64,000 bases of DNA, taken from IMG/VR virus record IMGVR_UViG_3300044960_000113, positions 96,001 to 160,000 of that record; one strand, written 5' to 3'. The notes beneath the pieces are model-generated. The model made no database searches. It was not told the DNA's origin and saw nothing but the letters and a program-made list of their open reading frames with translations. Below, piece by piece: positions 22,311 through 56,814 of the stretch. Origin of the DNA: a virus. Made by a program: the position numbers and the translations under genes. Numbering within the stretch: position 1 is the stretch's first letter; each line of letters starts with the position of its first letter.

Positions 22311-22407
22311 CAAAAATATCCTAAAAATTAAATATTTTGTTATATGAATTTTTATTTAAAATTATATATTAAATTTTATCAAAAATAAACAAAAATATCC
22401 TAATTTT

Positions 22408-24188: not shown

Positions 24189-24290
24189 ATAATACTTAAT
24201 TACTCCATTTGGATGTCGTAACGACATCCATAAAGTTGCTAAGAATTTTTAATTATTTGATATTATTTATAAAAAAATATAGTATAATTA

Positions 24291-31310: not shown

Positions 31311-31425
31311 ATAGCTTTTTCCTTTTTGTAACTTTCACAATAATCATTAATGTTGTCAATTATAATAATTGGTATATCTTGTTCTTTTTTTAACATCTAT
31401 GGAAGTTATAAACCTATGTGACATT

Positions 31426-34351: not shown

Positions 34352-35365
34352 TTATGATTTAAGAAAATCTATTATCTTTTTTGATACTTCATCAAATTGT
34401 TGTTTAACCTTTTGTGCTTTTTCTTTTCCGTATTCTGATGTAACTTTATCAAATTTTGTTGCTGTTATTGCTTTATCCATTTTCTTTCTATATATTGATG
34501 CAACTTTTTCTAAAAAATCATTTTCATCTGAAATATTTCTAAGTTGACCTTTATTATATGCATCATTTAACGTAAATGATTTTGCTAATCCTTTTATTCC
34601 TCTCGCAATATCTTCTATTTTAACATTCTCAAGATTAAAACCAGAATATTTTTTTAAATCATTATGAATTTTTGCATTTTTACCAACAATATTAATTAAT
34701 ATATCTATTAAAAATTCTTTAGGATTAATACTAATAGTTTTTAAATCTGCTTTTTGTGTTCTGAAAGGAACAACTATTCCATCTTTTGTTTTTTGTTGTA
34801 CTCCATAACCCTGAATTGATAAATTAAGAATTTCTGCTAATGATGATAATAAATTTCCATATAATGCACCTTTAACACCATGTTCAGGTTTATATCTAGC
34901 TTTTGCCCAATCTTTTGTATGTGTAAAAGTAAAGATTAAATCAACTTGAACATAATTATCACCATCTTTAATCATGATAAATTGTCCAGCTGTTTTTGAT
35001 TCTGGAACTGGGACAATATATGGTAAATTTGATTTTTCAACAAAATTTAAAATATTGTCATAATTTATTTTTACATTTTTATAATCTGATTTTGATTCAT
35101 CTTTTGGTATACTAATTAAACAATCAATATCACCATATTCTTTTTCAGGATCATCTTTATCATAATATGATACTGAACCAACAGGACCAATAAATTCTAT
35201 TTCATTGAAACCTTCTTTTTTTGCATACTTATTATATTTATCAAAAAATTTTTCAGTTAAATGTAATACTTTACGAACTAATGGTGGAGTCAATTTTGTA
35301 TTTTGATTGAGTGTTGTGCCCCAACCACCTTCTAATAAAGATAAAAAAGATTTAATAATTTTCAT
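34352..35365 (-). CDS. Pol-beta-type nucleotidyltransferase-like protein with Glu-ending leader
   Basis: GPVGSVS..YGDIDCL, YVQVDLIF; N-terminus MKIIKSFLSLLEGG. Confidence 0.55.
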   Translation of the reverse strand: MKIIKSFLSLLEGGWGTTLNQNTKLTPPLVRKVLHLTEKFFDKYNKYAKKEGFNEIEFIGPVGSVSYYDKDDPEKEYGDIDCLISIPKDESKSDYKNVKINYDNILNFVEKSNLPYIVPVPESKTAGQFIMIKDGDNYVQVDLIFTFTHTKDWAKARYKPEHGVKGALYGNLLSSLAEILNLSIQGYGVQQKTKDGIVVPFRTQKADLKTISINPKEFLIDILINIVGKNAKIHNDLKKYSGFNLENVKIEDIARGIKGLAKSFTLNDAYNKGQLRNISDENDFLEKVASIYRKKMDKAITATKFDKVTSEYGKEKAQKVKQQFDEVSKKIIDFLKS

Positions 35366-35623
35366 TTATTCAAATTTTTTTCTCAAAATATCTTTTGTTT
35401 TTTCTAATATTGATCTTCTTTCTGTACTTAAATTTTTACCAGCTCTATTAATATAGAAATTCAATGCACTCATGGCAGATTTTAAGTCTTTGTGTGAACT
35501 TTTTAACCAAGATGCTATATCTTCAGCTGAACCATTAGCAAATAAATTTTCGGGAGGATGCTTTTTTGTTTCTACATCACCAGACCACATTTTCTCAGAT
35601 AATAATTCTTTTATTAATTTCAT
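35366..35623 (-). CDS. DUF3175-like protein with MKLIKEL leader
   Basis: SAMSALNFYINRAGKNL..R..LE..K..LR. Confidence 0.75.
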   Translation of the reverse strand: MKLIKELLSEKMWSGDVETKKHPPENLFANGSAEDIASWLKSSHKDLKSAMSALNFYINRAGKNLSTERRSILEKTKDILRKKFE

Positions 35624-35879
35624 GATAATTTCTCCATAAATTTATAAAAATACTCTTAATTATTTATTAAATTAATTAATTTTTTTATACATTAAAATTT
35701 AATTACTATTTTAATTAGTATCAACAACAAGAATCAAACCTTGATATTAGAATCTCATTAGGAACAAGATTTCGTTCATTCGGTATCGTAAGTAGTATTT
35801 GGTTGGTTGGAATACATGTTTAATAATATATAATTATAATAATATACAAATTATTTAATACATATTATTTAAAATTTTT

Positions 35880-35969
35880 TGGGGTGTATGGCCGGACTCG
35901 AACCGGCTATATCCTTTAGGAACTGTGTTTCACAGACACAGGGCGCGACCACTTTGCTCTTCATACACC
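35880..35969 (-). tRNA. tRNA-His(GTG) with G-1:C73 and an extra variable hairpin
   Basis: GGTGTATG/CATACACC, TGTGT CTGTGAA ACACA, TCCT-AA-AGGA in variable region. Confidence 0.85.
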
Positions 35970-36030
35970 ATAGAAACTCTAGTTTTCTCTAGAGTTAAAA
36001 ATTTACTTTTTATATCAGATTTTAATAACT

Positions 36031-36105
36031 TGGCTAGGGCCCCCAGATTCGAACTGAGACTATCACTGTCAAAGAGTGAGGTGCTGCCAATTACACCAGA
36101 CCCCA
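36031..36105 (-). tRNA. tRNA-Gln(TTG)
   Basis: TCACT CTTTGAC AGTGA, G73, CCA. Confidence 0.92.
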
Positions 36106-36174
36106 ATTGTCAAAACACATTTTTCTTTTCAAAGATGATAAAAGTTTAAAATTTTTAATTGTTGTTAGTGTCTT

Positions 36175-36248
36175 TGGTTGTTCCTGAAGGTAACGCTCCT
36201 TCGTCTCACGATTATCAGTCGTGCGCTCTACTTTTGAGCTAAGGAACA
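36175..36248 (-). tRNA. tRNA-Ile(GAT), T-loop AGCGTTA
   Basis: CACGA CTGATAA TCGTG. Confidence 0.88.
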
Positions 36249-36306
36249 ATAAATTTTGATGGGGCTGCAGAGTACTGCCCCTGTCCTCCATCATTTTTTG
36301 TATTTT

Positions 36307-36381
36307 TGGTCGGCCCACCCAGATTCGAACTGAGAAAGATTGATTAAAAGTCAATTATGATACCAATTTCATCATGGGCCG
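36307..36381 (-). tRNA. tRNA-Lys(TTT)
   Basis: ATTGA CTTTTAA TCAAT. Confidence 0.9.
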
Positions 36382-36414
36382 AATGCTTTCCATTTTCAAT
36401 TGTAACATTATGAT

Positions 36415-36504
36415 TGGCTGTCCAGGCAGGGATCGAACCTGCGTAAGTATCTCTACTCTCTCCGCTTAACAGGCGGGGCCGTTACCAACTCCGGTCACTG
36501 GACA
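36415..36504 (-). tRNA. tRNA-Asn(GTT) with long variable arm
   Basis: CCCGC CTGTTAA GCGGA, variable GAGAGTAGAGATACTTAC, G73, CCA. Confidence 0.85.
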
Positions 36505-36627
36505 TCTATTTTTAATCTTTTGATCTGCATCTCGTGCAGCTTCTCCAGATTTCCGCCTATTTAAATCCATTTTTAATCTGGTGGATTTTGGCTCTCGTTA
36601 CCATTTTTACCAGTATTATAAAACAAC

Positions 36628-36657
36628 TTAGGGTCTAAACTTTCGTTTTGACCCTAA
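36628..36657 (-). terminator. Terminator-like hairpin after leader peptide
   Basis: TTAGGGTC..GACCCTAA followed by GTTGTTTT. Confidence 0.6.
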
Positions 36658-36690
36658 ATATATTTTTTGTGTTTAAGAGAATAATATTAT

Positions 36691-36795
36691 TTAGGGCCAT
36701 TCCCTATTTTGTTTATGATCAATAGTGCGAATAGTGACCTGTGCAGTTTTAATCTGCACTGTCTGTTTTCTATTTGTATTAATCATAAAAGCCAT
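36691..36795 (-). CDS. Putative 34-aa leader peptide MAFMINTNRKQTVQIKTAQVTIRTIDHKQNREWP
   Basis: GGAG RBS, manual translation, followed by hairpin and tRNA array. Confidence 0.55.
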   Translation of the reverse strand: MAFMINTNRKQTVQIKTAQVTIRTIDHKQNREWP

Positions 36796-36996
36796 TTTAT
36801 ATTACTCCATTTAAACATAAATCTATTTATTGATATTTCAAAAATTTTTAATAAAAACCCTAAAATAAGGTTTTTATTAAAAGTGATTATAATATTGATT
36901 TTCCCACAACAAGGTCTTTATCACACCTATCCTTTAGTCATTCATTATCATCACGACCATAAGTCAAACTGCAATTGAGTATGAACTGTATTTTTA

Positions 36997-37116
36997 AACT
37001 CTGCCCCCGAAGCTGTAAAGTTATAGTCGCTCCGATTTCTGCTCCCACAGCGGCCGATTTGTTGAATTGAGTACTGGGAGATACTCAATTTTTTGTCGGC
37101 CCTTAGCGACAGAGTT
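36997..37116 (-). ncRNA. Candidate structured ncRNA (~120 nt)
   Basis: AACTCTGTC/GGCAGAGTT closing stem, GGCCGA/TCGGCC, TTGAGTA/TACTCAA, GCTGTGGG/TTTACAGC; own promoter. Confidence 0.55.
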
Positions 37117-37136
37117 TTTATTTAAAATATGTAGAT

Positions 37137-37165
37137 ATTATATCTAATATCAAACAAAAAGTAAA
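37137..37165 (-). promoter_or_regulatory. Sigma70-like early promoter
   Basis: TTTACT-17 nt-TATAAT. Confidence 0.7.
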
Positions 37166-37277
37166 CAGTTATTTTGATAAATATTTTTATTAATTAATAA
37201 ATAGATTTTATATATTTAAAATTACTATATAAGAATAATATTCTAGGAGTCTCTGAGATCATCCTAGTGTCTCTGGA

Positions 37278-37622
37278 TTATATACTTTTTCTAATTTTAA
37301 CCCAATCTATTTTGTTAAATTTTCGCATATCACATTCCCCAGCAATTTTTAACATTTTAGAAAGAGTATATTTTTCATTATCAAAAAGACAATATGTCTC
37401 TACCGTATTAATATGAATAGGATTAATAATAATTTTACCTTCTGAAAATTTTGCTATTTGTTTAGAAGTTTCTATTAAAGAAACATATCCACCTTTCATT
37501 AATCTTAATGCAATTACAACAAATTCTCCCCTTTCATTATCATCTGAAAAATCAAATGAAAAATTAATTGTGTGTAAATTATTATCTTTAGTTTTACATT
37601 CAATAATCAAGTAAGCTTTCAT
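37278..37622 (-). CDS. Hypothetical protein
   Basis: ORF track. Confidence 0.5.
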   Translation of the reverse strand: MKAYLIIECKTKDNNLHTINFSFDFSDDNERGEFVVIALRLMKGGYVSLIETSKQIAKFSEGKIIINPIHINTVETYCLFDNEKYTLSKMLKIAGECDMRKFNKIDWVKIRKSI

Positions 37623-37695
37623 AATTTATATAAAAAATAGACAATATAAATTATCAAAAAGAAATAGACATAAACTATTAAAATTTAAAAATAAT

Positions 37696-38583
37696 TTATG
37701 TCCATAAATATCGACGTATTTTAATTAAACGTTCTAACATTTCATCATCTTCTTTAATATAAGATTCTTCTATTTCAATCATTTTATCTTGACATTTTTT
37801 CCATTCTTCATCTATTTTTTCATCATTATCTTCTATCATATCAATGATACTATTTTTTCCATTTTTGTATTTTGAATTATAATACTCAGTATATCCAGAT
37901 TCATCCATTGGATCTTTTCTCATTGGTCGAATAAATTTCCACCAAACATAAAGATCAAGAATTTCTAATGCAGCTTCAGCCTGATGTGTTGGTTTCATAT
38001 ATTCAGGATTATTTTTTCTTTTTTCATCTACTACATCTTTTCCTTCTTTTTCTTCCAACCAAGTATAACCAAACCAATTATCATCTTTTAATAATTTTGT
38101 TTCCCATAAAAGATAATCGACGCCTAATTGTTGACTTCTAATAGGAATAAATTTATGTATAAAATATGGTAAATATTTGACATACCATGGTTTTTTAGAA
38201 TTATCACACCACATATTTAAACTAGCTTTTTCAATTTCAACAAAATCTACTAAAAGTTCAAACATTCCATGTAACATTTTTTCTTCTGTTTCATGCCATG
38301 AACCTTTTGATAAACGAGTATTAATTATATGAGATGGTGAAATAAAACGTAAGTTAAACCAATATGCAAAATTATCTAATTTATCTTTTGGCCAATAGAC
38401 TATATCTTGAAGTAAATCTAAACCATCTTCAGATAACCAATATAAAAATTTATTTTTTTCTTTAGCTTTTTTATGATATTCTTTCCAACCTTTTGCGTCT
38501 GCTGCTAAAGGTTTAGGATCAATACCTCCCAATTTTTTTAACCAATTAGAAAATTTAGAACAACTCCAATATGAAACTCTCAT
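37696..38583 (-). CDS. Conserved hypothetical phage protein (Trp-rich)
   Basis: Long ORF, YWSCSKF..LIKIRRYLWT. Confidence 0.65.
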   Translation of the reverse strand: MRVSYWSCSKFSNWLKKLGGIDPKPLAADAKGWKEYHKKAKEKNKFLYWLSEDGLDLLQDIVYWPKDKLDNFAYWFNLRFISPSHIINTRLSKGSWHETEEKMLHGMFELLVDFVEIEKASLNMWCDNSKKPWYVKYLPYFIHKFIPIRSQQLGVDYLLWETKLLKDDNWFGYTWLEEKEGKDVVDEKRKNNPEYMKPTHQAEAALEILDLYVWWKFIRPMRKDPMDESGYTEYYNSKYKNGKNSIIDMIEDNDEKIDEEWKKCQDKMIEIEESYIKEDDEMLERLIKIRRYLWT

Positions 38584-38652
38584 AATTTTGTCTCCTATTA
38601 TAATAGGTAATAAATATATACTTTGAATAATTAAAATTATATAATTATCGTT

Positions 38653-38940
38653 TTATTCATGTAATTGAATATTTTTTCCTGATTTTAAAATATTAAAATT
38701 ATCAATTATTACACCAAATACATATGCCATAGTAACAGTTAATGAAATACTAAAAGCCCATGTTAATGCAGATGTATGTAATGAATTTGTTGGTTCTCCA
38801 TTTATTATTAACCATGTTATAAGTGACCAACAATATAAAAGTGTAACAACAATAATATTTTTTCTAATTGTTTTTGTTGGTAGTTGATTTTGATTTTGTA
38901 TTTGTTCTGACATTTTAATTCCTTCTCCTAAATAATTCAC
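38653..38940 (-). CDS. Small two-TM membrane protein
   Basis: Two hydrophobic helices. Confidence 0.6.
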   Translation of the reverse strand: MNYLGEGIKMSEQIQNQNQLPTKTIRKNIIVVTLLYCWSLITWLIINGEPTNSLHTSALTWAFSISLTVTMAYVFGVIIDNFNILKSGKNIQLHE

Positions 38941-38959
38941 ATAATTTTACTTTCGGGGG

Positions 38960-39044
38960 CGGAAGGTGTGGGACTCGAACCCACGAGACCATTGCTGGTC
39001 CACTGCTTTCCAGGCAGTTCTCATAGCCGCTAGAGGAACCTTCC
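38960..39044 (-). tRNA. tRNA-Ser(GGA), 3' end GCCC
   Basis: ACTGC CTGGAAA GCAGT, V-arm; near-identical to 40032-40119. Confidence 0.88.
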
Positions 39045-39366
39045 ATTTTACAAAATAAAGGAGATGTCTAACCTCTCAAACCAACCCAGTATTAATATTA
39101 TATATCATTCTATAGCATTATTTATATACTAAATTTAAAAAATAAAAAGCGAACTACAAGTTCGCTTTTTATCTCAACCATACTTTTTATCGTATAGTTT
39201 TAACGCATTTATTCTAGCTAAAAACAATCTTATCTTAATAATATCATCTAATTCTTCTCTATGTTTAACTAATCGTATAGATTTAGATTGTAACAAAACA
39301 TCAAAATCTATATCTATATCATTTAATTCTTGATTGTTTGTACCAGTTAATAAAAAAATAATTCTA

Positions 39367-39621
39367 TTATTTAGCTGGCTTAGCTTCGACTTTTGCTTTA
39401 CTTTTAGTGTTAGTTTTTTTACTAGCAGATTTTTTAACAGCTTTCTTTACTGGCTCAGCTTTTGCTGGTGTAGGTGCGACAGCTGTAGAAGCAGCAGGAA
39501 CAGCAGGAGCAGTCTTAGGTGCATCAGCTGCTAAAACTGAAGAAATACCAAATGTGATGACTAAAGCTGAAACTAGAAGTGAATTTTTCATATTAGATCT
39601 CCTTATATTAATTAGATACAA
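39367..39621 (-). CDS. Secreted Ala/Pro/Lys-rich low-complexity protein
   Basis: Signal peptide (MKNSLL..VLA) and PAK-rich tail. Confidence 0.7.
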   Translation of the reverse strand: MYLINIRRSNMKNSLLVSALVITFGISSVLAADAPKTAPAVPAASTAVAPTPAKAEPVKKAVKKSASKKTNTKSKAKVEAKPAK

Positions 39622-39691
39622 ACGGAATTATCTGTATCTATATAATTAATACTCCTAGGAGAGAAAAGTTACATATATTTAGGAAATATTT

Positions 39692-39776
39692 TGGTGCGTA
39701 GGGAGGGAGTCGAACCCTCAATCCTTTCGGCGCTGGCTTCTAAGACCAGAGTGTATTCCAGTTCCACCACCTACGC
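39692..39776 (-). tRNA. tRNA-Leu(TAG)
   Basis: CTGGT CTTAGAA GCCAG, V-arm. Confidence 0.95.
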
Positions 39777-39781
39777 ATTAA

Positions 39782-39864
39782 TGGTGCCCTCAACAGGATT
39801 CGAACCTGTAAAAGCTCTGGGTTTGAGCCAGTCGTCTGTGCCAATTTAACTAAGCCATGAGGGC
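39782..39864 (-). tRNA. tRNA-Leu(CAA) with short variable loop and enlarged D region
   Basis: CTGG CTCAAAC CCAG, variable region only ~6 nt. Confidence 0.8.
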
Positions 39865-39874
39865 AATTTTTGTT

Positions 39875-39948
39875 TGGAAACGAGGGCGGGAATCGAACCC
39901 ACCTCTTGGGTTTTGCAGACCCAGGCACAACCACTATACCACCTCGTC
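39875..39948 (-). tRNA. tRNA-Cys(GCA)
   Basis: TGGGT CTGCAAA ACCCA, U73. Confidence 0.92.
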
Positions 39949-39953
39949 AATTT

Positions 39954-40029
39954 TGGTGCTCCAGGAAAGAATCGAACTTTCTTTTCATCTTTACCAAAGA
40001 TGTGTATTACACCAATATACTACAGGAGC
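39954..40029 (-). tRNA. tRNA-Thr(GGT)
   Basis: CATCT TTGGTAA AGATG. Confidence 0.92.
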
Positions 40030-40031
40030 AA

Positions 40032-40119
40032 TGGCGGAAGGTGTGGGACTCGAACCCACGAGACCATTGCTGGTCTACTGCTTTCGAGGCAGTTCTCATA
40101 GCCGCTAGAGGAACCTTCC
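40032..40119 (-). tRNA. tRNA-Ser(CGA)
   Basis: ACTGC CTCGAAA GCAGT, V-arm, GCCA. Confidence 0.92.
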
Positions 40120-40182
40120 ATATTTTTATTATTAATTCTTACTCTATCTTCTTATGGCCCAGAATATAATGTTAAATTTTTT

Positions 40183-40278
40183 TGGCGGAGATGGTAGGAT
40201 TCGAACCTACGTGTCCTTTTTTTGGAGGACCCATTGTTTTCAAGACAAGTACCTTAAGCCAGACTCAGTCACATCTCC
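40183..40278 (-). tRNA. tRNA-Ser(TGA)
   Basis: Loop CTTGAAA, long V-arm, GCCA. Confidence 0.92.
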
Positions 40279-40283
40279 ATTTT

Positions 40284-40385
40284 GTTCTTGCCGGATACTC
40301 ATCCGAGTAGGAGCAATGGTCCGGCGCCAAAGGCAAGATTTACTACGTGCTTGCACACTCCACCTAGCATTTCGGCTAGGCAACT
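40284..40385 (-). ncRNA. Candidate structured ncRNA between tRNA-Ser genes
   Basis: CCTAGC/GCTAGG, TCTTGCC/GGCAAGA, CCGGA/TCCGG, TACTC/GAGTA stems. Confidence 0.5.
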
Positions 40386-40397
40386 TCTTTTACATAA

Positions 40398-40485
40398 TGG
40401 CGGAAGTTAGAGGATTCGAACCTCTGTGACCTTTCGGTCGATCTGTTTAGCAAACAGTCCCAATAGGCCTCTCTGGCAAACTTCC
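40398..40485 (-). tRNA. tRNA-Ser(GCT)
   Basis: Loop TTGCTAA, V-arm. Confidence 0.93.
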
Positions 40486-40512
40486 AAAATTTTAATATAA
40501 TATCTTTTTTAA

Positions 40513-40590
40513 TGGTCGGTGTGGCAGGATTCGAACCTGCGGTTTCCTGCTCCCAAAGCAGGCGACTTAACCGAGCTAGCCTACACACCG
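40513..40590 (-). tRNA. tRNA-Pro(TGG)
   Basis: CCTGC TTTGGGA GCAGG. Confidence 0.95.
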
Positions 40591-40612
40591 AAAAAATTTA
40601 AAAATTTTAATT

Positions 40613-41290
40613 TTAAACTAAATTATTTTTAATATCTTCTAATGATCTAATTAGATTCTTAACATAGACACCTAAAGAATCCATTGACATATATAAATCA
40701 TTAACAAGTTTTTTAGATTCTGGTGTTATTGTTTTATCTTTTTTCATTTTATCTACACGATATGATAAAACCATATTTGATGTATCTGGACTTTCAGAAT
40801 CTAATTTTGATTTAACAATGTCATATTTTTTTCGTATTTCATCTATTTGATTTAAAAATCCTTCATCGTATTTTTTATATTTCTTATACCAATAAGTTAT
40901 TAATCCATGAGGATCATGATTTTCAGCTGATTCTAAAATACGATTTAATATATCAATAGTATTGTCAATTCTAAAATCTTTTCTATCTACTTTTGGAAGA
41001 TATTTAGAAAGCATTTCTTTAATAAAATCTTCAAGATGTTTTTCTAATTCTGTTTCTAATTCGTTTTTATTTGAATATTTGCTAAATCCTTTATTTTTTA
41101 AATATCCAGGTATCACTCCATCATTATAATATTTGTAGTACTGATAAAAAACTCTATCTTTTCTTTCTTTATCTGTTTTTGATAAAATATTTTTATCATA
41201 CATCCATGCCATTAATTTATCAATTTTTGATAATTTATTATTCCATGCTCTACCTGGTTTTGAAGCTTCAAATAATTCAGATACTTTCAT
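40613..41290 (-). CDS. Hypothetical protein with MKVSELFE leader
   Basis: TATAAATA at 41327-41334, GGAG RBS. Confidence 0.65.
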   Translation of the reverse strand: MKVSELFEASKPGRAWNNKLSKIDKLMAWMYDKNILSKTDKERKDRVFYQYYKYYNDGVIPGYLKNKGFSKYSNKNELETELEKHLEDFIKEMLSKYLPKVDRKDFRIDNTIDILNRILESAENHDPHGLITYWYKKYKKYDEGFLNQIDEIRKKYDIVKSKLDSESPDTSNMVLSYRVDKMKKDKTITPESKKLVNDLYMSMDSLGVYVKNLIRSLEDIKNNLV

Positions 41291-41360
41291 TCTATATCTC
41301 CATTACTAGAACAATTAATATGTTAATATTTATAAGTATTTATAGAATTATAACATATTT

Positions 41361-41448
41361 TGGTGCAGCAGGTAGGATTTGCACCTACTCAGCACTAAGG
41401 CGCCGAATTTACAGTCCGGTGAGGCTCTCTAAACTCCCCCGCTGCTGC
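41361..41448 (-). tRNA. tRNA-Tyr(GTA), T-loop TGCAAAT
   Basis: CCGGA CTGTAAA TTCGG, V-arm. Confidence 0.88.
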
Positions 41449-41454
41449 ATTAAC

Positions 41455-41529
41455 TGGTAACCAAGAAGAATTTCGAAATCTCGACCTTTTGCATGTCATG
41501 CAAACGCTCTTCCTCTGAGCTACTTGGTT
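41455..41529 (-). tRNA. tRNA-Val(GAC)
   Basis: TTTGC ATGACAT GCAAA. Confidence 0.85.
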
Positions 41530-41549
41530 ATTTTTTACATATAATATTT

Positions 41550-41633
41550 TGGTGGGGTATCTAGGTAACGATCCTAGCTGGCCGAAGCATAAGTTTTACA
41601 GACTCCAGTGTCTCCTTAACACTCTAATACCCC
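41550..41633 (-). tRNA. tRNA-Tyr(GTA), T-loop ATCGTTA
   Basis: Loop CTGTAAA, V-arm, CCA. Confidence 0.85.
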
Positions 41634-41644
41634 ATATAATCATT

Positions 41645-41719
41645 TGGTGCCTCGTGAAGGTTACGCTCCTTCTACCCTTCGCTTGTAAGGCGAATGCTCT
41701 ACTATTGAGCTAACGAGGC
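41645..41719 (-). tRNA. tRNA-Val(TAC), T-loop AGCGTAA
   Basis: TTCGC CTTACAA GCGAA. Confidence 0.88.
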
Positions 41720-41732
41720 ATTTAAAAGAGTA

Positions 41733-41840
41733 TTAATCGACACATGGGTTTAAGGACTTCATAGATATGTCCTCTCAATTTGATTATACAAGTTGTCCAT
41801 ACTTGTAAATTGAGATTACGTTAACGCTTTGGTCGATCAA
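41733..41840 (-). ncRNA. Candidate multi-branched ncRNA in tRNA array
   Basis: TTGATCGAC/GTCGATTAA closing stem; CTCAATTT-ACAAGT/ACTTGT-AAATTGAG arm; AGGAC/GTCCT arm. Confidence 0.5.
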
Positions 41841-41874
41841 GCAGGCGGACACACCAATTTGTTCCCTAATACTC

Positions 41875-41953
41875 TGGTGCAAGGTCCAGGAATCGAACCT
41901 GGTTTTACTGCTCTTCAGGCAGTCGCTGAAATCACCAGACTAGCTCACCTTGC
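41875..41953 (-). tRNA. tRNA-Phe(GAA)
   Basis: ACTGC CTGAAGA GCAGT. Confidence 0.9.
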
Positions 41954-42074
41954 ATATTTCAACTACCTCGTATCAATTGCACAGCACTATTATTACATTA
42001 TTATTGTCTACCAGTGGCCACAGATTAGTGTAATCATTCCCTAGTTCGTCAACTAGGCGAGATTATTTAATAAT

Positions 42075-42154
42075 TGGTGGACCTCCAGGGATTTGAACCC
42101 TGCTGAATATCCGCATTGCAAGTGCGGCGAACACCCCAAGCATTCCCGAAGCCC
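42075..42154 (-). tRNA. tRNA-Ala(TGC), second copy
   Basis: G3-U70, CCGCA CTTGCAA TGCGG. Confidence 0.88.
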
Positions 42155-42164
42155 ATTATGTTTT

Positions 42165-42238
42165 TGGCGGGCTGCCAAGGAATCGAACCCTGATCTGATG
42201 TTTTGGAGACATCCATTCTACCACTGAACTAGCAACCC
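42165..42238 (-). tRNA. tRNA-Trp(CCA)
   Basis: GATGT CTCCAAA ACATC, G73. Confidence 0.93.
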
Positions 42239-42245
42239 GTTTTTA

Positions 42246-42355
42246 TGTGTTGACTGTCTCAACACTGACGAATTTTACTCCCTTTCGGTTTCATCCTCGC
42301 CGCCGCCCGTTTAGTTCTTTTTTAACGTGCTGAACAACACCCTCGTTGCGTATAT
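42246..42355 (-). ncRNA. Candidate structured ncRNA
   Basis: GGCGAG/TTCGTC stem enclosing GATGAA-CC-GAAA-GG-GAGTA; terminal GTGTTG/CAACAC hairpin. Confidence 0.45.
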
Positions 42356-42372
42356 ATGCACGTATTACTTAT

Positions 42373-42447
42373 TGGTCGTCACTATAGGTACTGCCCCTAT
42401 CTAGTCTTCGTTATGAGCGAAGTGCATAACTTCTCTGCCAAGTGACG
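42373..42447 (-). tRNA. tRNA-Met(CAT), T-loop GGCAGTA
   Basis: CTTCG CTCATAA CGAAG, CGTCACT/AGTGACG. Confidence 0.85.
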
Positions 42448-42564
42448 TTAATCTATAACTACTCTTTTAGTTCTTTTAAAAGAACCTTTTCCTTTTTTAG
42501 ATTTAAAAACACGCATTTTATATTTTGGTGTTCTTAAATCTTTTGATACTATACTTTTCTTCAT
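42448..42564 (-). CDS. arfA: ArfA-like alternative ribosome-rescue factor (38 aa)
   Basis: Not in ORF track. AAGGAG RBS; MKKSIVSKDLRTPKYKMRVFKSKKGKGSFKRTKRVVID carries the ArfA L..P....RV.K.KKGKGS..R motif. Confidence 0.8.
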   Translation of the reverse strand: MKKSIVSKDLRTPKYKMRVFKSKKGKGSFKRTKRVVID

Positions 42565-42585
42565 TTTTAATATCTCCTTAAAATC

Positions 42586-42616
42586 AAACCGGGCTCCTTT
42601 TTATGGAGCCCGGTTT
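42586..42616 (-). terminator. Strong hairpin between leader peptide and arfA
   Basis: AAACCGGGCTCC/GGAGCCCGGTTT 12-bp stem. Confidence 0.75.
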
Positions 42617-42643
42617 TTAAATTTCATGAGATATTTATCTCTT

Positions 42644-42739
42644 TTAACCGAGCTCCTTTAGTCGCATAGGCGCATATGAACTAAAGCTCACTAGAAGCAT
42701 TGTACATAATGATGGTAACCAATAAGTTGCTTGTTTCAT
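42644..42739 (-). CDS. Putative 31-aa leader peptide MKQATYWLPSLCTMLLVSFSSYAPMRLKELG
   Basis: AAGGA RBS, manual translation, upstream tandem promoters, downstream hairpin. Confidence 0.55.
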   Translation of the reverse strand: MKQATYWLPSLCTMLLVSFSSYAPMRLKELG

Positions 42740-42779
42740 TTACTTTAAAATTCCTTTTAATTAAATTGTATCTATGTTA

Positions 42780-42907
42780 TATTTATAATAATATCACGTT
42801 TTTTCAAAAAAGTAAACTATTTTTTCCTAAATTTTTTAAAAAATTAAGCTGTATTTACATCATATTTATAATAATATCATGTTTTTCAAAAAAGTAAACT
42901 ATTTTTT
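42780..42907 (-). repeat. ~46-bp direct repeat carrying tandem promoters
   Basis: 42780-42825 and 42863-42907: TTTACT-17-TATTAT overlapping TATAAATA. Confidence 0.75.
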
Positions 42908-42952
42908 AAATCGCCTATTCAAAAATAATTAATAATTTCTCTTTAATTAATG

Positions 42953-43592
42953 TTATTTCCAAATAAATTCTCCACCAATATTAATAAATGAATGATCTGA
43001 TTCTGATTTAAATTTGATATTTTTACAATAAAAACTACCACCTACTTCTCTTGGTGCACCTTGTAATGATGTTAATTGATTATCTGAACAATCAAAATTA
43101 CCACCAACTTTTTTTGGTCCACCTTGTAATAATTTTATAACCACCAATTTCTCTTGGTCCACCTTGTAATGATTTTAATTGATTATTATGACAATCAAAA
43201 TAACCACCAATTTCTCTTGGTCCACCTTGTAATGATTTTAATTGATTATTATGACAATCAAAACTACCACCAACTTCTCTTGGTCCACCTTGTAATGATG
43301 TTAATTTATTACCATAACAATCAAAACTACCACCTACTTCTCTTGGAGCACCTTTTAATGATGTTAATTTATTACGTTGACAATAAAAATTACCATCTAC
43401 TTCACCAAATTGGACTGGTATATGTGTTAAATTTCTATTAGAAATATTAACATCTCCATTAACATCAACTATACCATTATCATGAATTATATAATTTTTA
43501 ATGTTCATCTTTTTTAACCAATCCTTTATTTCTTGTTTATTGGTTAATACTTTATGTTCTTCTTCTTTTAAAAATAGTTCTTGTAATTTCAT
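42953..43592 (-). pseudogene. 22-aa leucine-rich-repeat protein with MKLQEL leader, frameshifted within a repeat
   Basis: LTSLQGGPREVGGSFDCxxNQ units (66 bp) continue across ORFs 43098-43592 and 42953-43162; truncated unit near 43130. Confidence 0.8.
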
Positions 43593-43645
43593 TTCCAGAT
43601 AAAATTAGATTAATAATTTTTGTTCAAATAATTCGAGTAATTTCA

Positions 43646-44059
43646 TTATTCTAAAATCTTATCTAATCTATCAAAAAAGTTTTCAGTTTTAGAATGTAAA
43701 TTATTTGGTAAATCTATTAATTTAAAACTTTTAACTTTACTAGTTTCTTTTGATGTTTTAACATTTTGTGGATCATTTATCTTTGCAGCATAATATATAG
43801 AATTATCAATAATAGCTATTTCTTTAAGATTTGATGGTGATATTACATAACCTGTTTCTTCTTTTAATTCTCTAATAGCAGCATCAATAGGTGATTCACC
43901 ATCATCAACACTACCACCAAAAAAATTCCATTGATTTGGATTATTAACAGATGGAGATCTTTTACCTAATATAATTTTATCTTTAGTGTAAAGAATTACC
44001 CAAACCGATTTAATATTTTTTTTCTCTAAAATAAATTGTTTAAATGTTTTTTTAAACAT
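43646..44059 (-). CDS. Nudix hydrolase with MFKKTFKQFILE leader
   Basis: Nudix box GGSVDDGESPIDAAIRELKEETG. Confidence 0.9.
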   Translation of the reverse strand: MFKKTFKQFILEKKNIKSVWVILYTKDKIILGKRSPSVNNPNQWNFFGGSVDDGESPIDAAIRELKEETGYVISPSNLKEIAIIDNSIYYAAKINDPQNVKTSKETSKVKSFKLIDLPNNLHSKTENFFDRLDKILE

Positions 44060-44060
44060 G

Positions 44061-44552
44061 TTACTTATTTAATTTTTTTTCAAATTTATTAATTACTTCT
44101 TTAAGAGCATTTTCCCACAATGACACCATTGTTTTTAATGGATTTCCTGCAACAATTTTTGGTTTTGGTGATTTAAGTCTATATGGTACTATTTTACCAG
44201 TAAAATAATTTGGGTTTGACTGTTGTCTAATTTGACCATTTCCATAAATTTTATAAACATAGTTATCATTAGTATCTTTACCATTAGAATATTTAATATT
44301 CTGTTTAAATGATAAAGTACCATTTTGCAATTCCCTATCAGTTGAATTAAATTCTAATCCTAACTCTAATGCATCTTTCCAAGTTTGCGTTTTCTTTAAT
44401 TTATCAAGAGCTTCATTAAAAAATGATAAATCGCCCTGTTCGATACCAAGTCTATTTAACCAGTCAGTAACAGCACCACGTACAATTCCTAATTCTTTTT
44501 TATAACTTGGTAAATAATAACTTTTAGATTCAAATATTTCAGATACTTTCAT
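44061..44552 (-). CDS. Hypothetical protein with MKVSEIFE leader
   Basis: ORF, GGAGG RBS. Confidence 0.6.
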   Translation of the reverse strand: MKVSEIFESKSYYLPSYKKELGIVRGAVTDWLNRLGIEQGDLSFFNEALDKLKKTQTWKDALELGLEFNSTDRELQNGTLSFKQNIKYSNGKDTNDNYVYKIYGNGQIRQQSNPNYFTGKIVPYRLKSPKPKIVAGNPLKTMVSLWENALKEVINKFEKKLNK

Positions 44553-44571
44553 TTTTATTACCCTCCAATGT

Positions 44572-44988
44572 TTATTTTTCTTTTTTATACCCAGAACTAC
44601 TTAACCAATTCTCAACTTCATCTAAACTCATATCGTTGAATGTTTTAATTGTTTCAAATTTACCACTTTTTGGAGATTGAAATGAACGTCTTAAGGTATA
44701 ATAATAAGGTCCATCTTGCCATAAAATAAATTTATCTATACCTTTTGAATATTTGCTTATCCAATGATTAAGTTTTTCGAATATTTTCATTCCAGGTCTA
44801 ATATGAACAATTTTAAGATCAATTGGTGACTTACCATATTTTTTCTTTTCTTTTTGTAATGCTACATTTGCTTCATATTTAGAATTAAATTTTCCTTTAT
44901 AACCAATCTTTTTAAAAGAACTATCTGGCATTATTGTATATTGTATTGTTAATTGTTCATTTAAATTTAAAAGTTCACTTACCTTCAT
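44572..44988 (-). CDS. Hypothetical protein with MKVSELL leader
   Basis: TATAAATA at 45028-45035. Confidence 0.6.
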   Translation of the reverse strand: MKVSELLNLNEQLTIQYTIMPDSSFKKIGYKGKFNSKYEANVALQKEKKKYGKSPIDLKIVHIRPGMKIFEKLNHWISKYSKGIDKFILWQDGPYYYTLRRSFQSPKSGKFETIKTFNDMSLDEVENWLSSSGYKKEK

Positions 44989-45084
44989 AATGGAATTCCT
45001 TATATTTTACATAATAATTAATTAATATATTTATAATATATTTTTAATTTTTTTAAACAAAATTAAATAAAATTGAAATAAAGA

Positions 45085-45163
45085 TGGTCCGGAAGATAGG
45101 ATTTGAACCTACATGATTCCATTACTCTTTCTACAGTTTCGAAGACTGAGGAGATACTTCCGG
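45085..45163 (-). tRNA. D-armless tRNA-Arg(TCG) with expanded variable region
   Basis: CCGGAAG/CTTCCGG; 7-nt connector TATCTCC; CAGT CTTCGAA ACTG; 20-nt variable region; T-arm; CCA. Confidence 0.75.
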
Positions 45164-45166
45164 AAT

Positions 45167-45246
45167 TGGCCTCGATGACAGGATTCGAACCTGCATGTTT
45201 CCAATTAACCTTTCAACTGGTTCGTAGCCAGAGGGTATACATCGAG
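45167..45246 (-). tRNA. D-armless tRNA-Arg(ACG) with expanded variable region
   Basis: CTCGATG/CATCGAG; connector TATACCC; CTGG CTACGAA CCAG; 21-nt variable region; CCA. Confidence 0.75.
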
Positions 45247-45247
45247 A

Positions 45248-45323
45248 TGGCACCACCAAAGGGTCATGCTCCCATCCTTATAGATTGACAGTCTATTATG
45301 CTCATTATTAACACTATGGTGGT
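45248..45323 (-). tRNA. tRNA-Asp(GTC), T-loop AGCATGA
   Basis: ATAGA CTGTCAA TCTAT, G73. Confidence 0.8.
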
Positions 45324-45328
45324 TCAGA

Positions 45329-45403
45329 TGGCGGTCTATCCGGGACTCGAACCCGGTTCAATGGCGTGACAAGCCACCATAATAACCCATATACGAATAG
45401 ACC
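45329..45403 (-). tRNA. tRNA-Asp(GTC)
   Basis: GTGGC TTGTCAC GCCAT, G73. Confidence 0.92.
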
Positions 45404-45415
45404 TAATAAAAAATT

Positions 45416-45492
45416 TGGTGCGGGTACCCAGATTCGAACTGGGACTTAAACGTTGGCAACGTTTCGTGCTAACCATTAAACACTATACACGC
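45416..45492 (-). tRNA. tRNA-Gly(GCC) with A73
   Basis: AAACG TTGCCAA CGTTT; T4.C69 mismatch. Confidence 0.85.
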
Positions 45493-45501
45493 ATAACATA
45501 T

Positions 45502-45576
45502 TGGTAGACCGTAGGAGATTCGAACTCCTCTTCCCAGATTGAAGGTCTGGTCGCCTGCGCCAGCTGCTCACGGTCC
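45502..45576 (-). tRNA. tRNA-Glu(TTC)
   Basis: CCAGA CCTTCAA TCTGG (C33). Confidence 0.85.
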
Positions 45577-45583
45577 ATATTTT

Positions 45584-45654
45584 TGGTATCCCGTACCAGT
45601 TCTGCCCCCGGTCCCTTTTGAGGCCCAATGGCGTCACTAGCTGCCTCATGGGAT
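45584..45654 (-). pseudogene. tRNA pseudogene (Glu-like), 3' strand of anticodon stem missing
   Basis: Acceptor ATCCCAT/ACGGGAT, D-arm and GGCAGAA T-loop present; TTGGG has no partner. Confidence 0.55.
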
Positions 45655-45687
45655 ATTTCTCTAAATTGTAAAAGAACTTAACACATT

Positions 45688-45762
45688 TGGTGCGGGGTAG
45701 GAGAATCGAACTCCTTATTTCTGGTTGGAAGCCAGACGTGTAACCAATGACACTTACCACGC
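45688..45762 (-). tRNA. tRNA-Gly(TCC) with A73
   Basis: TCTGG CTTCCAA CCAGA; T4.C69 mismatch. Confidence 0.85.
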
Positions 45763-45774
45763 ATATAAAACAAT

Positions 45775-45801
45775 TTAGGGCTTCTTTTAAAAAAGCCCTA
45801 A
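45775..45801 (-). terminator. Terminator-like hairpin after leader peptide
   Basis: TTAGGGCTT..GAAGCCCTAA then ATTGTTTT. Confidence 0.65.
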
Positions 45802-45834
45802 GTTTAGATAAAAAATCTTAACTTAGAGCTCACA

Positions 45835-45924
45835 TTAAATATCCTCCCCGCGTTCATCGCGATCAACACGACCTGTTCCGGTAACCCGAATAGTCATGAT
45901 TGAGATTGAAGTAATGTTAAACAT
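45835..45924 (-). CDS. Putative 29-aa leader peptide MFNITSISIMTIRVTGTGRVDRDERGEDI
   Basis: AGGAG RBS, manual translation, promoter upstream, hairpin and tRNA array downstream. Confidence 0.55.
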   Translation of the reverse strand: MFNITSISIMTIRVTGTGRVDRDERGEDI

Positions 45925-45961
45925 TTATTGCTTGCTCCTATTAAAAATTTACTATATTGGT

Positions 45962-45990
45962 ATTATATATAGATTTTTCTAAAAAGTAAA
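45962..45990 (-). promoter_or_regulatory. Sigma70-like early promoter
   Basis: TTTACT-17 nt-TATAAT. Confidence 0.7.
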
Positions 45991-46034
45991 CAGTTATTTC
46001 CTATATTTAAATATTAAAAATATTTATAATAATT

Positions 46035-46155
46035 TCATGTTCGTTTATTTTTAGCTAATCTTTCCCATTCGCGTTTTTGATAATAAATAGCTTCATTTTT
46101 TGTTAAACCATTTACTATTGAACGTCTATCAAAATAATAATTCTGATATTTTCAT
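46035..46155 (-). pseudogene. Frameshifted small gene with MKISELL leader
   Basis: ATG AAA ATA TCA GAA TTA TTA TTT TGA; a shifted frame continues DRRSIVNG..KNKRT*. Confidence 0.45.
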
Positions 46156-46171
46156 AATTTATATTTCTTTA

Positions 46172-46678
46172 TTAAACCTCTTCTAATAACCAGAATGATA
46201 ATTTTTCTGCACCACTTCCGCGTGACCAAAATCCATTATAAAGATAAAACCATGGACCCTCTTCTTTATCGTTTAAATCACGAACATATAAATAGGAATG
46301 ATAACCATATTTATTTTTTGATTGAATATCTTCTAACTCTTTTAACGATTTTGCATTTTTATTTTTTAATAATTCTCTAACAGAATCAAATTTTATACCA
46401 CCTTCACCATATTTTTCATCATCATCTGTTAAACCTAAAATTTCATAAACTTCAGCACCTTGATTATACGCATTATATGTTGCTAAAACAATCATTCCCT
46501 TTTTTAATTCTGAATGTTGTAAAGAACGTACAACTTTATATTCTTTATCATCAACAATAACATTTTCTTTTTTCGATGTTACTTCACGTACTTTTTGAAT
46601 AGTTTTTTTAGATTTTGATGCATGACTTGACAATTCATCAATATTATATACTTCTTTTAAAAGTTCTTTAAGTTTCAT
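46172..46678 (-). CDS. Hypothetical protein with MKLKELLKE leader
   Basis: ORF, GGAG RBS. Confidence 0.6.
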   Translation of the reverse strand: MKLKELLKEVYNIDELSSHASKSKKTIQKVREVTSKKENVIVDDKEYKVVRSLQHSELKKGMIVLATYNAYNQGAEVYEILGLTDDDEKYGEGGIKFDSVRELLKNKNAKSLKELEDIQSKNKYGYHSYLYVRDLNDKEEGPWFYLYNGFWSRGSGAEKLSFWLLEEV

Positions 46679-46691
46679 TATTTAATCTCCT

Positions 46692-46964
46692 TTATTTTTC
46701 TGTACGTTCATTAATCCAATCTCTAATTTCTTTTTCTGACATTTTACTAAAATATTTAGTATAAAATTCTTCTGGTGTACTATCTCTAGCCTTTTTGACT
46801 GAATATGGCATTTCATCTTCTAAATAAAGATATAATTTTTCTTCAGCAGATTCACTTGGTTCAGTCCCATTTGTTAGATAATCAAAAATCTCTTTAGCTT
46901 CAGCTTTTGTAAATAGCTTAGTTAAATAAGATTCATTAATAAACTGTTTAAATGTTTTTTTCAT
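46692..46964 (-). CDS. Hypothetical protein with MKKTFKQFINE leader
   Basis: ORF; YL..EMPY.V.KAR..PE motif. Confidence 0.6.
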   Translation of the reverse strand: MKKTFKQFINESYLTKLFTKAEAKEIFDYLTNGTEPSESAEEKLYLYLEDEMPYSVKKARDSTPEEFYTKYFSKMSEKEIRDWINERTEK

Positions 46965-47028
46965 TTTGTTTTACCCTACGTATTAATAAAATATTTAATT
47001 TTATTTATTAAAAATGTAAAAAATATTA

Positions 47029-47211
47029 TTAAATATACATATTTTCATCAAAATCATTTAAAATTTGATAAATTTTATCATATACATAATCAATATTATT
47101 ATTGTTAATAATACCTTTATTTATTAAATCATCAACTAAATCTAAAAGATTAAGCTCAAGAAAATTTATTAATGTTTCTGTTGGTTTTTGATGAAAAATT
47201 TCAAATAACAT
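47029..47211 (-). CDS. Hypothetical protein
   Basis: ORF track. Confidence 0.45.
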
Positions 47212-48277
47212 ATTTATTTTCCAATATAGTTAACTGTTTATTAAATACAACTTTAGCTTTTTCTGAATTTGGAACATTCTTAAGAAGCTTTTCATAATTG
47301 ATATTTTTTAAAAGTATAATCGATTGTTCAATATCTATCATAGCATCTCTAAAAGAAGATGTTATAGCGCAGGCAATCATTAAATATTTAAAAGTTAATG
47401 ATTGCCTTAAAGCACCTATATTTTTAAGAATATCAATTTTTTCTTTTGATAAAAGTCTATCAAAAACAATAATAAAATCATGATATTTTTGATAAAGTTC
47501 TATTGTTTCTTTAACAGAAGATGGAAATTTTATAATCGTTTCTAGTTTATTGATATCACAGTTTCTAAAAAGAACAGTACAAAGTGATTCAATAGGTGCA
47601 TCTGTTAACATCGCTTTATCTAGTAATTTTTTATCAGTGTCTAATAATTCAAATCCAAAAAGTCGATTAAGAGCACCACATTGGTCAAGAATTTCAAGTC
47701 CCCAAATCATATCATTTTCAAGAAGTAGTTTTTCTAATTCTTTCCAAACTCTTTCAGGTGTTAGATGATCAAGTTCACCCATTGTCACCATACGTGACAT
47801 TAGAGACATAGTATCAGGATCTACACTGAATCCATAACGAGCAGCAAATCGTGCAACTCTAAGTACACGTAAAGGATCTTCAGCAAATGCTGCTGATACA
47901 TGTCTAAGAATACCATCTTTTAGATCTTTTTGACCACCAAATGGGTCAATAATCTCACCGGTATTAGGACAGATAGCCATAGCATTGATCGTAAGATCAC
48001 GCCTAGATAGGTCTTCTTCAAGTGACACATTTTCAGTTGACCAAGAAAATCCATTATAACCTATCCCATTTTTTCGCTCTCGCCTAGCTAGAGCATATTC
48101 TTCTTTAGTTTCAGGGTGAAGATAAACTGGAAAGTCAGTATCAACACGAGTATAACCTTGGGATTCAAGAGTTAAAATATCTTGTTCAGTAGCACCAACA
48201 ATAACCCAATCGCGATCTTTGGAATCAAAACCTAGAAGTTTATCTCTAACGGCTCCACCAACAGAATAAATTTTCAT
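47201..48277 (-). CDS. cca: CCA-adding tRNA nucleotidyltransferase (class II)
   Basis: [59 protein letters not shown]. Confidence 0.95.
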
Positions 48278-56372: not shown

Positions 56373-56481
56373 CGCCTATGGTATATGGGTTAATATTGAC
56401 ATTATAACACAAAAATAAAGAAAAGTATATAAAATATTTATTTAATATTATTAATTTTTTTAATAAAGATAGTTAAAATAA

Positions 56482-56760
56482 AATGCAAGCTGATTTGATG
56501 ACAAGGACAGCTTGCGAAACCTCGTGGTGATTACGCTGCTAGGCGCATCTCTCCAAAATATTCATCATTTGCTGCATTTATTTTAGTTTTGTCTTCTCAA
56601 TAACGGCTTTAGACATTGCCGAGCGCCTTTTATTAGTACTAATCGTTACCACGTCGAAACCATATACCACCCCATATTAAAATTTTAATCTATTGGTGGA
56701 GTGGGCGGGAATCGAACCCGCGTCCGCAATAACTTTCCCTTATAAAAGGTTTACGCTGTT
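56482..56760 (-). ncRNA. ssrA: Two-piece (circularly permuted) tmRNA
   Basis: Acceptor piece ..GACGCGGGTTCGATTCCCGCCCACTCCACCA (ends 56694) precedes coding piece GGGGTGG..TTCGAC (starts 56673); G3-U70; tag ANDEYFGEMRLAA* at 56531-56572. Outer ends approximate. Confidence 0.93.
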
Positions 56761-56814
56761 TTACTACATTTACACAAACGCCAATTTGTGTTCTTTATTT
56801 GTTATATTTATATT

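Follow-up and report, generated by a model that had tools for sequence, protein, structure and literature searches.

Putative ribosome-dependent attenuators with array-matched leader peptides ahead of transfer RNA arrays in an uncultured large phage

Leader-peptide attenuators control the amino-acid operons of enterobacteria, among them ilvL (ahead of ilvGMEDA), thrL, trpL, hisL and leuL, and a leader of this kind, pheM, attenuates the pheST operon of Escherichia coli. T-box riboswitches bind uncharged transfer RNA (tRNA) directly and need no open reading frame (ORF). The E. coli ribosome-rescue gene arfA is controlled by transfer-messenger RNA (tmRNA) and RNase III, by way of a non-stop messenger RNA and tagging of the protein. 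It is still debated what tRNA genes do for phages and at what point they are expressed; codon bias, host shut-off and escape from tRNA-cleaving defences are among the proposed answers. In mycobacteria, stalling within an upstream ORF (uORF) leads to antitermination ahead of whiB7; the uORF's coding sequence sets which amino-acid shortage is sensed, and general translation stress also triggers the switch (PMC10274678). Here we describe three units, each consisting of a short leader ORF and a hairpin, that stand ahead of three tRNA arrays in a 64,000-nucleotide (nt) stretch of phage DNA, bases 96001-160000 of the 184-kilobase (kb) IMG/VR virus record IMGVR_UViG_3300044960_000113. We call this whole stretch the window, and all coordinates are window positions. 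Our preferred reading, to which we assign a probability of roughly 0.72, is that the units are ribosome-mediated leader-peptide transcription attenuators that control the tRNA arrays and whose leaders are written largely in the amino acids of those arrays. The phage probably makes the array tRNAs mainly when ribosomes decode slowly.

The whole analysis was computational and drew on sequence, folding models and comparison. The record has a G+C content of 27%; with its completeness estimated at about one half, the whole phage would measure roughly 350 kb. All 32 called tRNAs of the record and its one tmRNA fall in the window, and they lie on the minus strand together with the leader units, promoters and hairpins. 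An earlier reading of the letters alone, the original prediction, had described three mini-ORFs, each with a ribosome-binding site and a hairpin shortly downstream, and these elements were confirmed. The minus-strand ORFs have 34, 31 and 29 codons, and a Shine-Dalgarno (SD) core precedes all three starts, compared with ~3% of random ATGs in the genome. Hairpins with U-rich tails follow the stop codons at distances of 31, 27 and 33 nt in units 1, 2 and 3. The further description, in which a tRNA array comes after the hairpin, held for units 1 and 3 but not for unit 2, where an arfA-like ORF and a tRNA-like element come first. The parts of the three units are as follows; segment 2 denotes the putative antiterminator strand at the end of each leader.

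36691-36795, minus strand: leader ORF 1, 34 codons; SD core GGAG, spacing 9, at 36805-36808
36688-36698, minus strand: segment 2 of unit 1, overlapping the final two codons plus the stop; its pairing with 36650-36660 gives the antiterminator
36612-36660, minus strand: terminator of unit 1, with 5' arm 36650-36660, 3' arm 36625-36635 and U-rich tail 36612-36624 (-17.0 kcal/mol); its loop holds an inner stem capped by GAAA, and the hairpin lies 120 nt ahead of tRNA-Asn
35880-36504, minus strand: tRNA array 1, called as Asn(gtt), Lys(ttt), Ile(gat), Gln(ttg), His(gtg)
42644-42739, minus strand: leader ORF 2, 31 codons; SD core AGGA, spacing 12, at 42752-42755
42646-42656, minus strand: segment 2 of unit 2, covering the last four codons; pairs with 42605-42616
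42574-42616, minus strand: terminator of unit 2, with a 12-base-pair (bp) stem (42586-42616) that has 8 G-C pairs (-22.5 kcal/mol); its U tail is short and runs into the SD sequence of the arfA-like gene
39692-42238, minus strand: tRNA array 2, with Trp, Ala, Phe, Val, Tyr, Val, Tyr, a 225-codon ORF (40613-41290), and a distal part after that ORF (minus strand) with Pro, Ser, Ser, Ser, Thr, Cys, a weak tRNA-like element and Leu; the next minus-strand terminator after the array is at 39139-39175
45835-45924, minus strand: leader ORF 3, 29 codons; SD core GGAG, spacing 10, at 45935-45938
45820-45831, minus strand: segment 2 of unit 3, beginning 3-5 nt past the stop; pairs with 45795-45804
45763-45804, minus strand: terminator of unit 3, with a 12-bp stem (45775-45801; -14.7 kcal/mol) and a U-rich tail that ends 1 nt before tRNA-Gly, which starts 12 nt beyond the hairpin
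45088-45762, minus strand: tRNA array 3, with Gly(tcc), Glu(ttc), Gly(gcc), Asp(gtc) from tRNA calls and three elements found by Rfam only
45251-45323, 45170-45247 and 45088-45163, minus strand: the Rfam-only elements of array 3, with a GUC loop (36.7 bits), an ACG loop (below threshold) and a UCG loop (33.1 bits), respectively

Five tRNA-like elements on the minus strand (45251-45323, 45170-45247, 45088-45163, 39785-39855 and 42375-42447) were not called by ARAGORN at default settings, and two of them show a very short D region together with a long variable region. A candidate fourth unit outside the window, at genome position 71145, was rejected as an ordinary terminator behind a protein gene.

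The evidence for a switch lies in the pairing between the end of each leader and its terminator. In all three units segment 2 nearly repeats the terminator 3' arm and therefore can pair with the terminator 5' arm; in units 2 and 3 it carries one internal mismatch to the true 3' arm, a C-to-T change that keeps a G-U pair. Antiterminator energies were -15.8, -21.1 and -18.4 kcal/mol for units 1, 2 and 3, against the -17.0, -22.5 and -14.7 kcal/mol of the terminators, and the duplex between segment 2 and the 5' arm in unit 1 amounted to -14.4 kcal/mol. Measured against 2000 dinucleotide shuffles of the 70 nt upstream, pairing of the 5' arm with this upstream region gave p = 0.0015, < 0.0005 and < 0.0005 for units 1-3. 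Among 43 hairpins with T-rich tails found genome-wide, competitors of -10.9 kcal/mol or stronger were present only in units 1 and 3 and at one ordinary terminator; the competitor of unit 2 scored -20.2.

To model ribosome position, the nascent RNA as far as the terminator loop was folded by partition function while a mask of 30 nt, standing for the ribosome, was stepped codon by codon along the leader. The modelled probability of the antiterminator was 0.89-1.0 without a ribosome and 0.9-1.0 with the A site up to codon 28, 24 and 27 of the respective leaders, and it fell to 0-0.26 once the A site stood at the last codons or the stop. The model thus predicts that read-through is the default and that termination would occur only if a ribosome keeps pace with the polymerase to the leader end. 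Direct occlusion of the terminator, as in pyrBI, was considered and rejected because the stop codons are 27-33 nt ahead of the hairpin.

We suggest that transcription would begin at a phage promoter and that a ribosome would load on the leader. With segment 2 lying at or just past the leader stop and able to pair with the 5' arm, a ribosome that keeps pace with RNA polymerase would cover segment 2, the terminator would fold, and the transcript would end before the tRNAs. Slow decoding of the leader, or absence of a ribosome, would allow segment 2 to capture the 5' arm, and the polymerase would read through into the array. The array would be self-limiting, coming on when tRNAs run short or translation is stressed. 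One leader ends in W-P-stop, which had been proposed as a stall signal. The ending is present, but since its codons spell the antiterminator strand, a ribosome held there would favour termination rather than read-through.

The leaders match in composition the arrays that follow them. Leader 1 abounds in codons for Ile, Asn, Lys and Gln and includes a single His codon, and 15 of its 33 residues belong to the array 1 set of Asn, Lys, Ile, Gln and His (p = 0.063; p = 0.023 at the codon level). For leader 2 the count was 22 of 30 residues in the array 2 set (p = 0.0017), including 20 of 21 within residues 4-24. Leader 3 has 12 Gly, Glu, Asp or Arg residues in 28 (p = 0.010), and all of its second half apart from four positions is made of these amino acids (12/16, residues 13-28). 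Combined, the three pairs gave a Fisher p of 1.2e-4, and every comparison of a window leader with a non-cognate array was depleted (6/6, p > 0.79, codon level). Synonymous codon choice was atypical for the genome and in part suited to the arrays. The four Arg codons of leader 3 are all CGN, against a genome preference for AGA (59%; p = 0.016), and array 3 includes elements with ACG- and UCG-type loops; four of the six Leu codons in leader 2 are CTN, and the sole Leu tRNA of array 2 is (tag). We read each attenuator as a kinetic device that would gauge the speed of leader decoding; given this codon content, it would report mainly on the tRNAs that its own array supplies. A different signal had been seen in the Ile/Thr richness of two peptides and in the TIR motif that they share. 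The richness did not hold up as an array-related signal, since Thr tRNAs are missing from arrays 1 and 3 and array 3 also lacks one for Ile. The TIR motif is present but is probably not a signal; in units 1 and 3 it may reflect common descent, as suggested by scattered DNA similarity between both units.

The same architecture was found in four other uncultured large phages of 360, 135, 497 and 146 kb. The relatives came from large contigs in a promoter-motif scan that was itself non-specific. A complete 360-kb phage and a 135-kb fragment have CCA-adding enzymes 52% and 48% identical to that of the present phage and carry 49 and 40 tRNAs, respectively. The 360-kb phage has an SD-led ORF with an antiterminator and a terminator at the head of two of its arrays, and the terminator tail motif resembles the tails of units 1 and 3. 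One of its leaders draws 32 of 46 residues from the set of its own array, which comprises Met, Pro, Glu, Asp, Phe, Gln, His, Trp, Arg and Cys (p = 5e-7); the other leader is Ser-rich, and the array behind it starts with two Ser tRNAs. The 135-kb fragment contains one leader/antiterminator/terminator unit. The arrangement is shared by the more distant phages of 497 and 146 kb, where a leader rich in Cys, Asp, Phe, Tyr, Glu, Thr and Ser precedes exactly those seven tRNAs (p = 2.5e-4) and another matches an array of Ala, Thr, Pro, Val, Leu, Arg and Lys (p = 1.2e-4). In the four units from other phages that were examined in detail, the ORF ends on or after segment 2. The six extra leader/array pairs gave a combined Fisher p of 5.6e-13. 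All nine pairs from the five phages gave p = 1e-15, none of 200,000 random reassignments of leaders to arrays reached the observed match, and the cognate leader was the top scorer for seven of the nine arrays. Conservation of the uORFs in relatives, which the original prediction had named as a check, was therefore seen at the level of architecture, in four phages, but not of peptide sequence; related phages keep the architecture and the composition match and not the peptide.

Other searches for relatives returned little. Megablast and tblastn against cultured phages gave tRNA-level matches only, or nothing, and two queries in neighbour-protein scans of viral contigs gave nothing. A third query led to two distant, non-syntenic loci, which were rejected; the tRNAs there directly follow protein genes. 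The ten proteins looked up were all singleton clusters or absent from the collection, and a terminator-tail motif scan of viral contigs was non-specific, its lone match near a tRNA having no unit. Unusual tRNAs were observed in the other phages. The 497-kb phage has one with a TTA anticodon, a suppressor type reading UAA (position 8833-8906 of contig stretch 403100-414200), a hint that stop codons may be reassigned or suppressed. A CTA-anticodon tRNA, which reads UAG and is labelled Pyl by ARAGORN, is present in both related phages (reverse complement 1478-1551 and 1233-1309).

The described systems closest to the units include the ilvL- and thrL-type leaders. Both kinds have a short leader rich in the sensed codons and an intrinsic terminator before the regulated genes, and in both the antiterminator shares a strand with the terminator and its formation is set by ribosome position, here in silico. 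However, the phage units would control tRNA genes and arfA instead of biosynthetic enzymes, their leaders list five to ten or more amino-acid types in place of runs of one to three, they match no Rfam leader family, and they are phage-encoded. Unlike trp-type leaders, they have no convincing 1:2 hairpin, and their modelled default without a ribosome is read-through and not super-attenuation. The likeness to pheM-pheST lies in leader-peptide attenuation of a gene of the translation apparatus that reports charged tRNA supply; pheM, however, senses one amino acid, controls a synthetase rather than tRNA genes, and is chromosomal. The whiB7 attenuator also differs from the phage units, in that it controls a transcription factor, is Ala-enriched, has no tRNA-gene link and is not in a phage (PMC10274678). 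As with T-box riboswitches (RF00230), a terminator/antiterminator choice before translation-related genes would be set by tRNA status, but here an SD-led ORF ends on the antiterminator strand or <=5 nt before it. Neither the Rfam amino-acid operon leader families nor the T-box matched at E <= 1 over 35000-47500, and no leader or T-box family was found at E <= 5 in the sub-regions 36495-37145 and 42225-42460; the units and spacers matched no further Rfam family either. Full-text sources, which covered few subscription journals, held no account of leader-peptide attenuation of phage or cellular tRNA genes, in agreement with the statement in the original prediction that no such description was known. 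The central proposal of that prediction, ribosome-dependent attenuation, thus gained support from the competing antiterminator, the modelled position dependence, the composition match and the four other phages.

Promoters were assigned by a motif scan, which revealed a consensus of the T4-early type repeated across the genome ahead of protein genes, and the consensus promoters of the three units by a sequence check as well. The candidates that bear on the units are listed here.

37137-37166, minus strand: consensus phage promoter upstream of unit 1, assigned to a ~130-nt structured RNA and possibly to leader 1
36814-36841, minus strand: weak sigma-70-like match directly ahead of leader 1 (9/12 matches)
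42871-42899 and 42788-42817, minus strand: tandem consensus promoters of unit 2
45962-45991, minus strand: consensus promoter of unit 3

A promoter before each unit, as first proposed, was thus found for units 2 and 3, in tandem for unit 2, where the consensus promoters sit 30-45 nt upstream of the leader ORF, but unit 1 has only the weak sigma-70-like match. In units 1 and 3 the stretch from the hairpin to the first tRNA, just 12 nt long in unit 3, accommodates no consensus promoter, and therefore these arrays must be transcribed through the hairpin. The structured RNA upstream of unit 1 (36990-37117, minus strand) directly follows its consensus promoter and is closed by a long-range stem (fold z = -3.1); it matches no Rfam family, and a weak hairpin lies downstream of it at 36853-36875. 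Away from the units, consensus promoters stand directly before tRNA-Thr(cgt), tRNA-Ile(tat), a Thr-Asn pair and the tmRNA (promoters at 19867, 22311, 29214 and 56844), and small tRNA sets in the related phages likewise have plain promoters. Tandem-duplicate consensus promoters ~80 nt apart were observed before unit 2 (42788-42899, minus strand) and before tRNA-Ile(tat) (22282-22390, minus strand). About 25 nt ahead of an Ala-Gly-Gly tRNA array there is an 8-bp hairpin without a U tail (24205-24230, minus strand), which may be a processing or stability element.

Between the unit 2 hairpin and tRNA-Trp lie two further elements, in the order given.

42448-42564, minus strand: ArfA-like alternative ribosome-rescue factor, 38 codons, the first gene past the unit 2 terminator
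42375-42447, minus strand: cloverleaf resembling a tRNA, its anticodon loop containing CAU and its T loop non-canonical; called by neither ARAGORN nor the Rfam tRNA model

The ORF scored 26.8 bits against Pfam PF03889 (cut-off 25.5) and has the conserved basic motif of the KGKGS type; its residues 4-32 align with residues 13-41 of E. coli ArfA in solved ribosome complexes (E = 0.005). Unit 2 would thus gate an arfA-like rescue gene as well as tRNAs, and the position of this gene fits induction under tRNA shortage or ribosome stalling. As in E. coli, the rescue factor would be made only when normal translation or rescue fails, which for the phage is our proposal; unlike E. coli arfA, the phage gene has a stop codon and sits behind a putative transcription attenuator. 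Within 15 kb, the minus strand carries what amounts to a translation-repair kit beside the tRNAs, made up of the ArfA-like gene (42448-42564), the tmRNA (56440-56786) and a CCA-adding enzyme (47201-48277).

Several observations weigh against attenuation by array-matched leaders. The folding models are equilibrium and not kinetic, there is no clear trp-type 1:2 hairpin (units 1 and 2 show only short candidate pairings of this sort), and the U tails are imperfect, with four U in unit 2. Unit 1 has no consensus promoter directly upstream, the nearest being 340 nt away. No leader unit was found at six small tRNA sets and the tmRNA, four of which have a consensus promoter directly upstream. At the amino-acid level the match of leader 1 is weak (p = 0.063), and array 1 offers no counterpart to its five Thr codons. 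Against the first seven tRNAs alone, leader 2 scores 7 of 30 residues, which is near expectation, so its match relies on the distal half of array 2, past the 225-codon ORF; the peptide's hydrophobic character would also suit a small membrane protein. Without the Rfam-only elements, leader 3 drops to 8 of 28 (p = 0.14), and of the two Arg-type elements in array 3 one fails to reach the Rfam threshold. Both the array sets and the choice of ORFs were settled only after the data had been looked at, and no relatives at 90% identity were found for comparison within units.

The main rival accepts that the units are real ribosome-dependent attenuators but holds that they sense general translation speed or stress, such as ribosome shortage, inhibitors or host shut-off, with the composition match secondary or coincidental. 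The modelled switch does depend only on a ribosome reaching the leader end, unit 2 is followed first by a gene for a factor that rescues stalled ribosomes, and known uORF attenuators such as that before whiB7 answer many types of stalling (PMC10274678). The weak match of leader 1 and the unmatched first half of leader 3 would be expected as well. However, the leader/array match is directional, with every cross-comparison within the window depleted; it recurs with different amino-acid sets in four other phages, and over all nine pairs permutation reproduced it in 0 of 200,000 trials; and rare synonymous codons suit the downstream anticodons. We consider this explanation improbable on balance, while still deserving serious attention.

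Two other explanations fit poorly. If the ORFs were ordinary small phage genes with their own terminators, leader 2 encoding a small membrane peptide, the tRNAs would be made by leaky read-through and the alternative pairings would not be regulatory. Phage genomes commonly contain SD-led small ORFs and terminators, leader 2 encodes a hydrophobic peptide, and gene callers report two of the three leader ORFs as proteins. Yet a near-copy of the 3' arm stands at the stop in all three units (p <= 0.0015 each), which ordinary terminators mostly lack; the leader peptides have no relatives, all clusters being singletons, and related phages keep the architecture and not the peptide sequence. Arrays 1 and 3, moreover, have no other consensus promoter between hairpin and first tRNA. 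We judge this account quite unlikely. Slightly less credit still is due to a translation-independent RNA element, acting in processing or stability of the tRNA precursor or as a switch operated by a protein or a tRNA, in which the ORFs are incidental. Hairpins directly ahead of the first tRNA do occur in several arrays, including the Ala-Gly-Gly hairpin without a U tail, and a short motif is common to the hairpin tails of units 1 and 3 and of a related phage. Such an element would not account for the position of the ORFs, which in the window end on segment 2 or <=5 nt before it and in four other-phage units on or after it, nor for the SD cores and the agreement of leader composition with array content; Rfam gave no match to a T-box or another leader.

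In its most specific form, attenuation by array-matched leaders would be a codon-resolved control of tRNA supply in large phages, in which a shortage of the tRNAs sampled by a leader opens exactly that array. We rate this form somewhat better than an even chance. A shortage caused by host codon bias, starvation or host anticodon nucleases would slow the leading ribosome, unit 2 would also open the rescue factor, and accumulating phage tRNAs would speed the reading of the leader until the array shuts itself down. If this is true, the phage gauges how particular codons are decoded and responds by supplying the matching tRNAs together with a rescue factor, and leader-peptide attenuation extends from amino-acid and synthetase genes to tRNA genes. 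It would also provide a sequence rule for spotting such switches in metagenomic phages and possibly a source of compact, programmable codon-specific sensors.

Genes near the tRNA region encode the CCA-adding enzyme, a NUDIX hydrolase, a ribonucleotide reductase with an intein, a TnpB-like protein, PrkA and a GGDEF-EAL protein. A similar N-terminal motif of the MK-V/L-x-E-L type begins several small inter-array proteins on the minus strand (40613-41290, 43098-43592, 44061-44552, 44572-44988, 46172-46678 and 35366-35623), which match no Pfam family save for weak LRR-like matches in one. The large subunit of the ribonucleotide reductase is split into two ORFs with intein-type matches at their junction and adjoins the TnpB-like (OrfB_IS605) gene (29592-32763 and 32919-34160, minus strand). 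The phage also encodes a PrkA-type kinase and a PAS-GGDEF-EAL protein (2257-4221 and 9319-11460, minus strand), signalling genes that are unusual in a virus.

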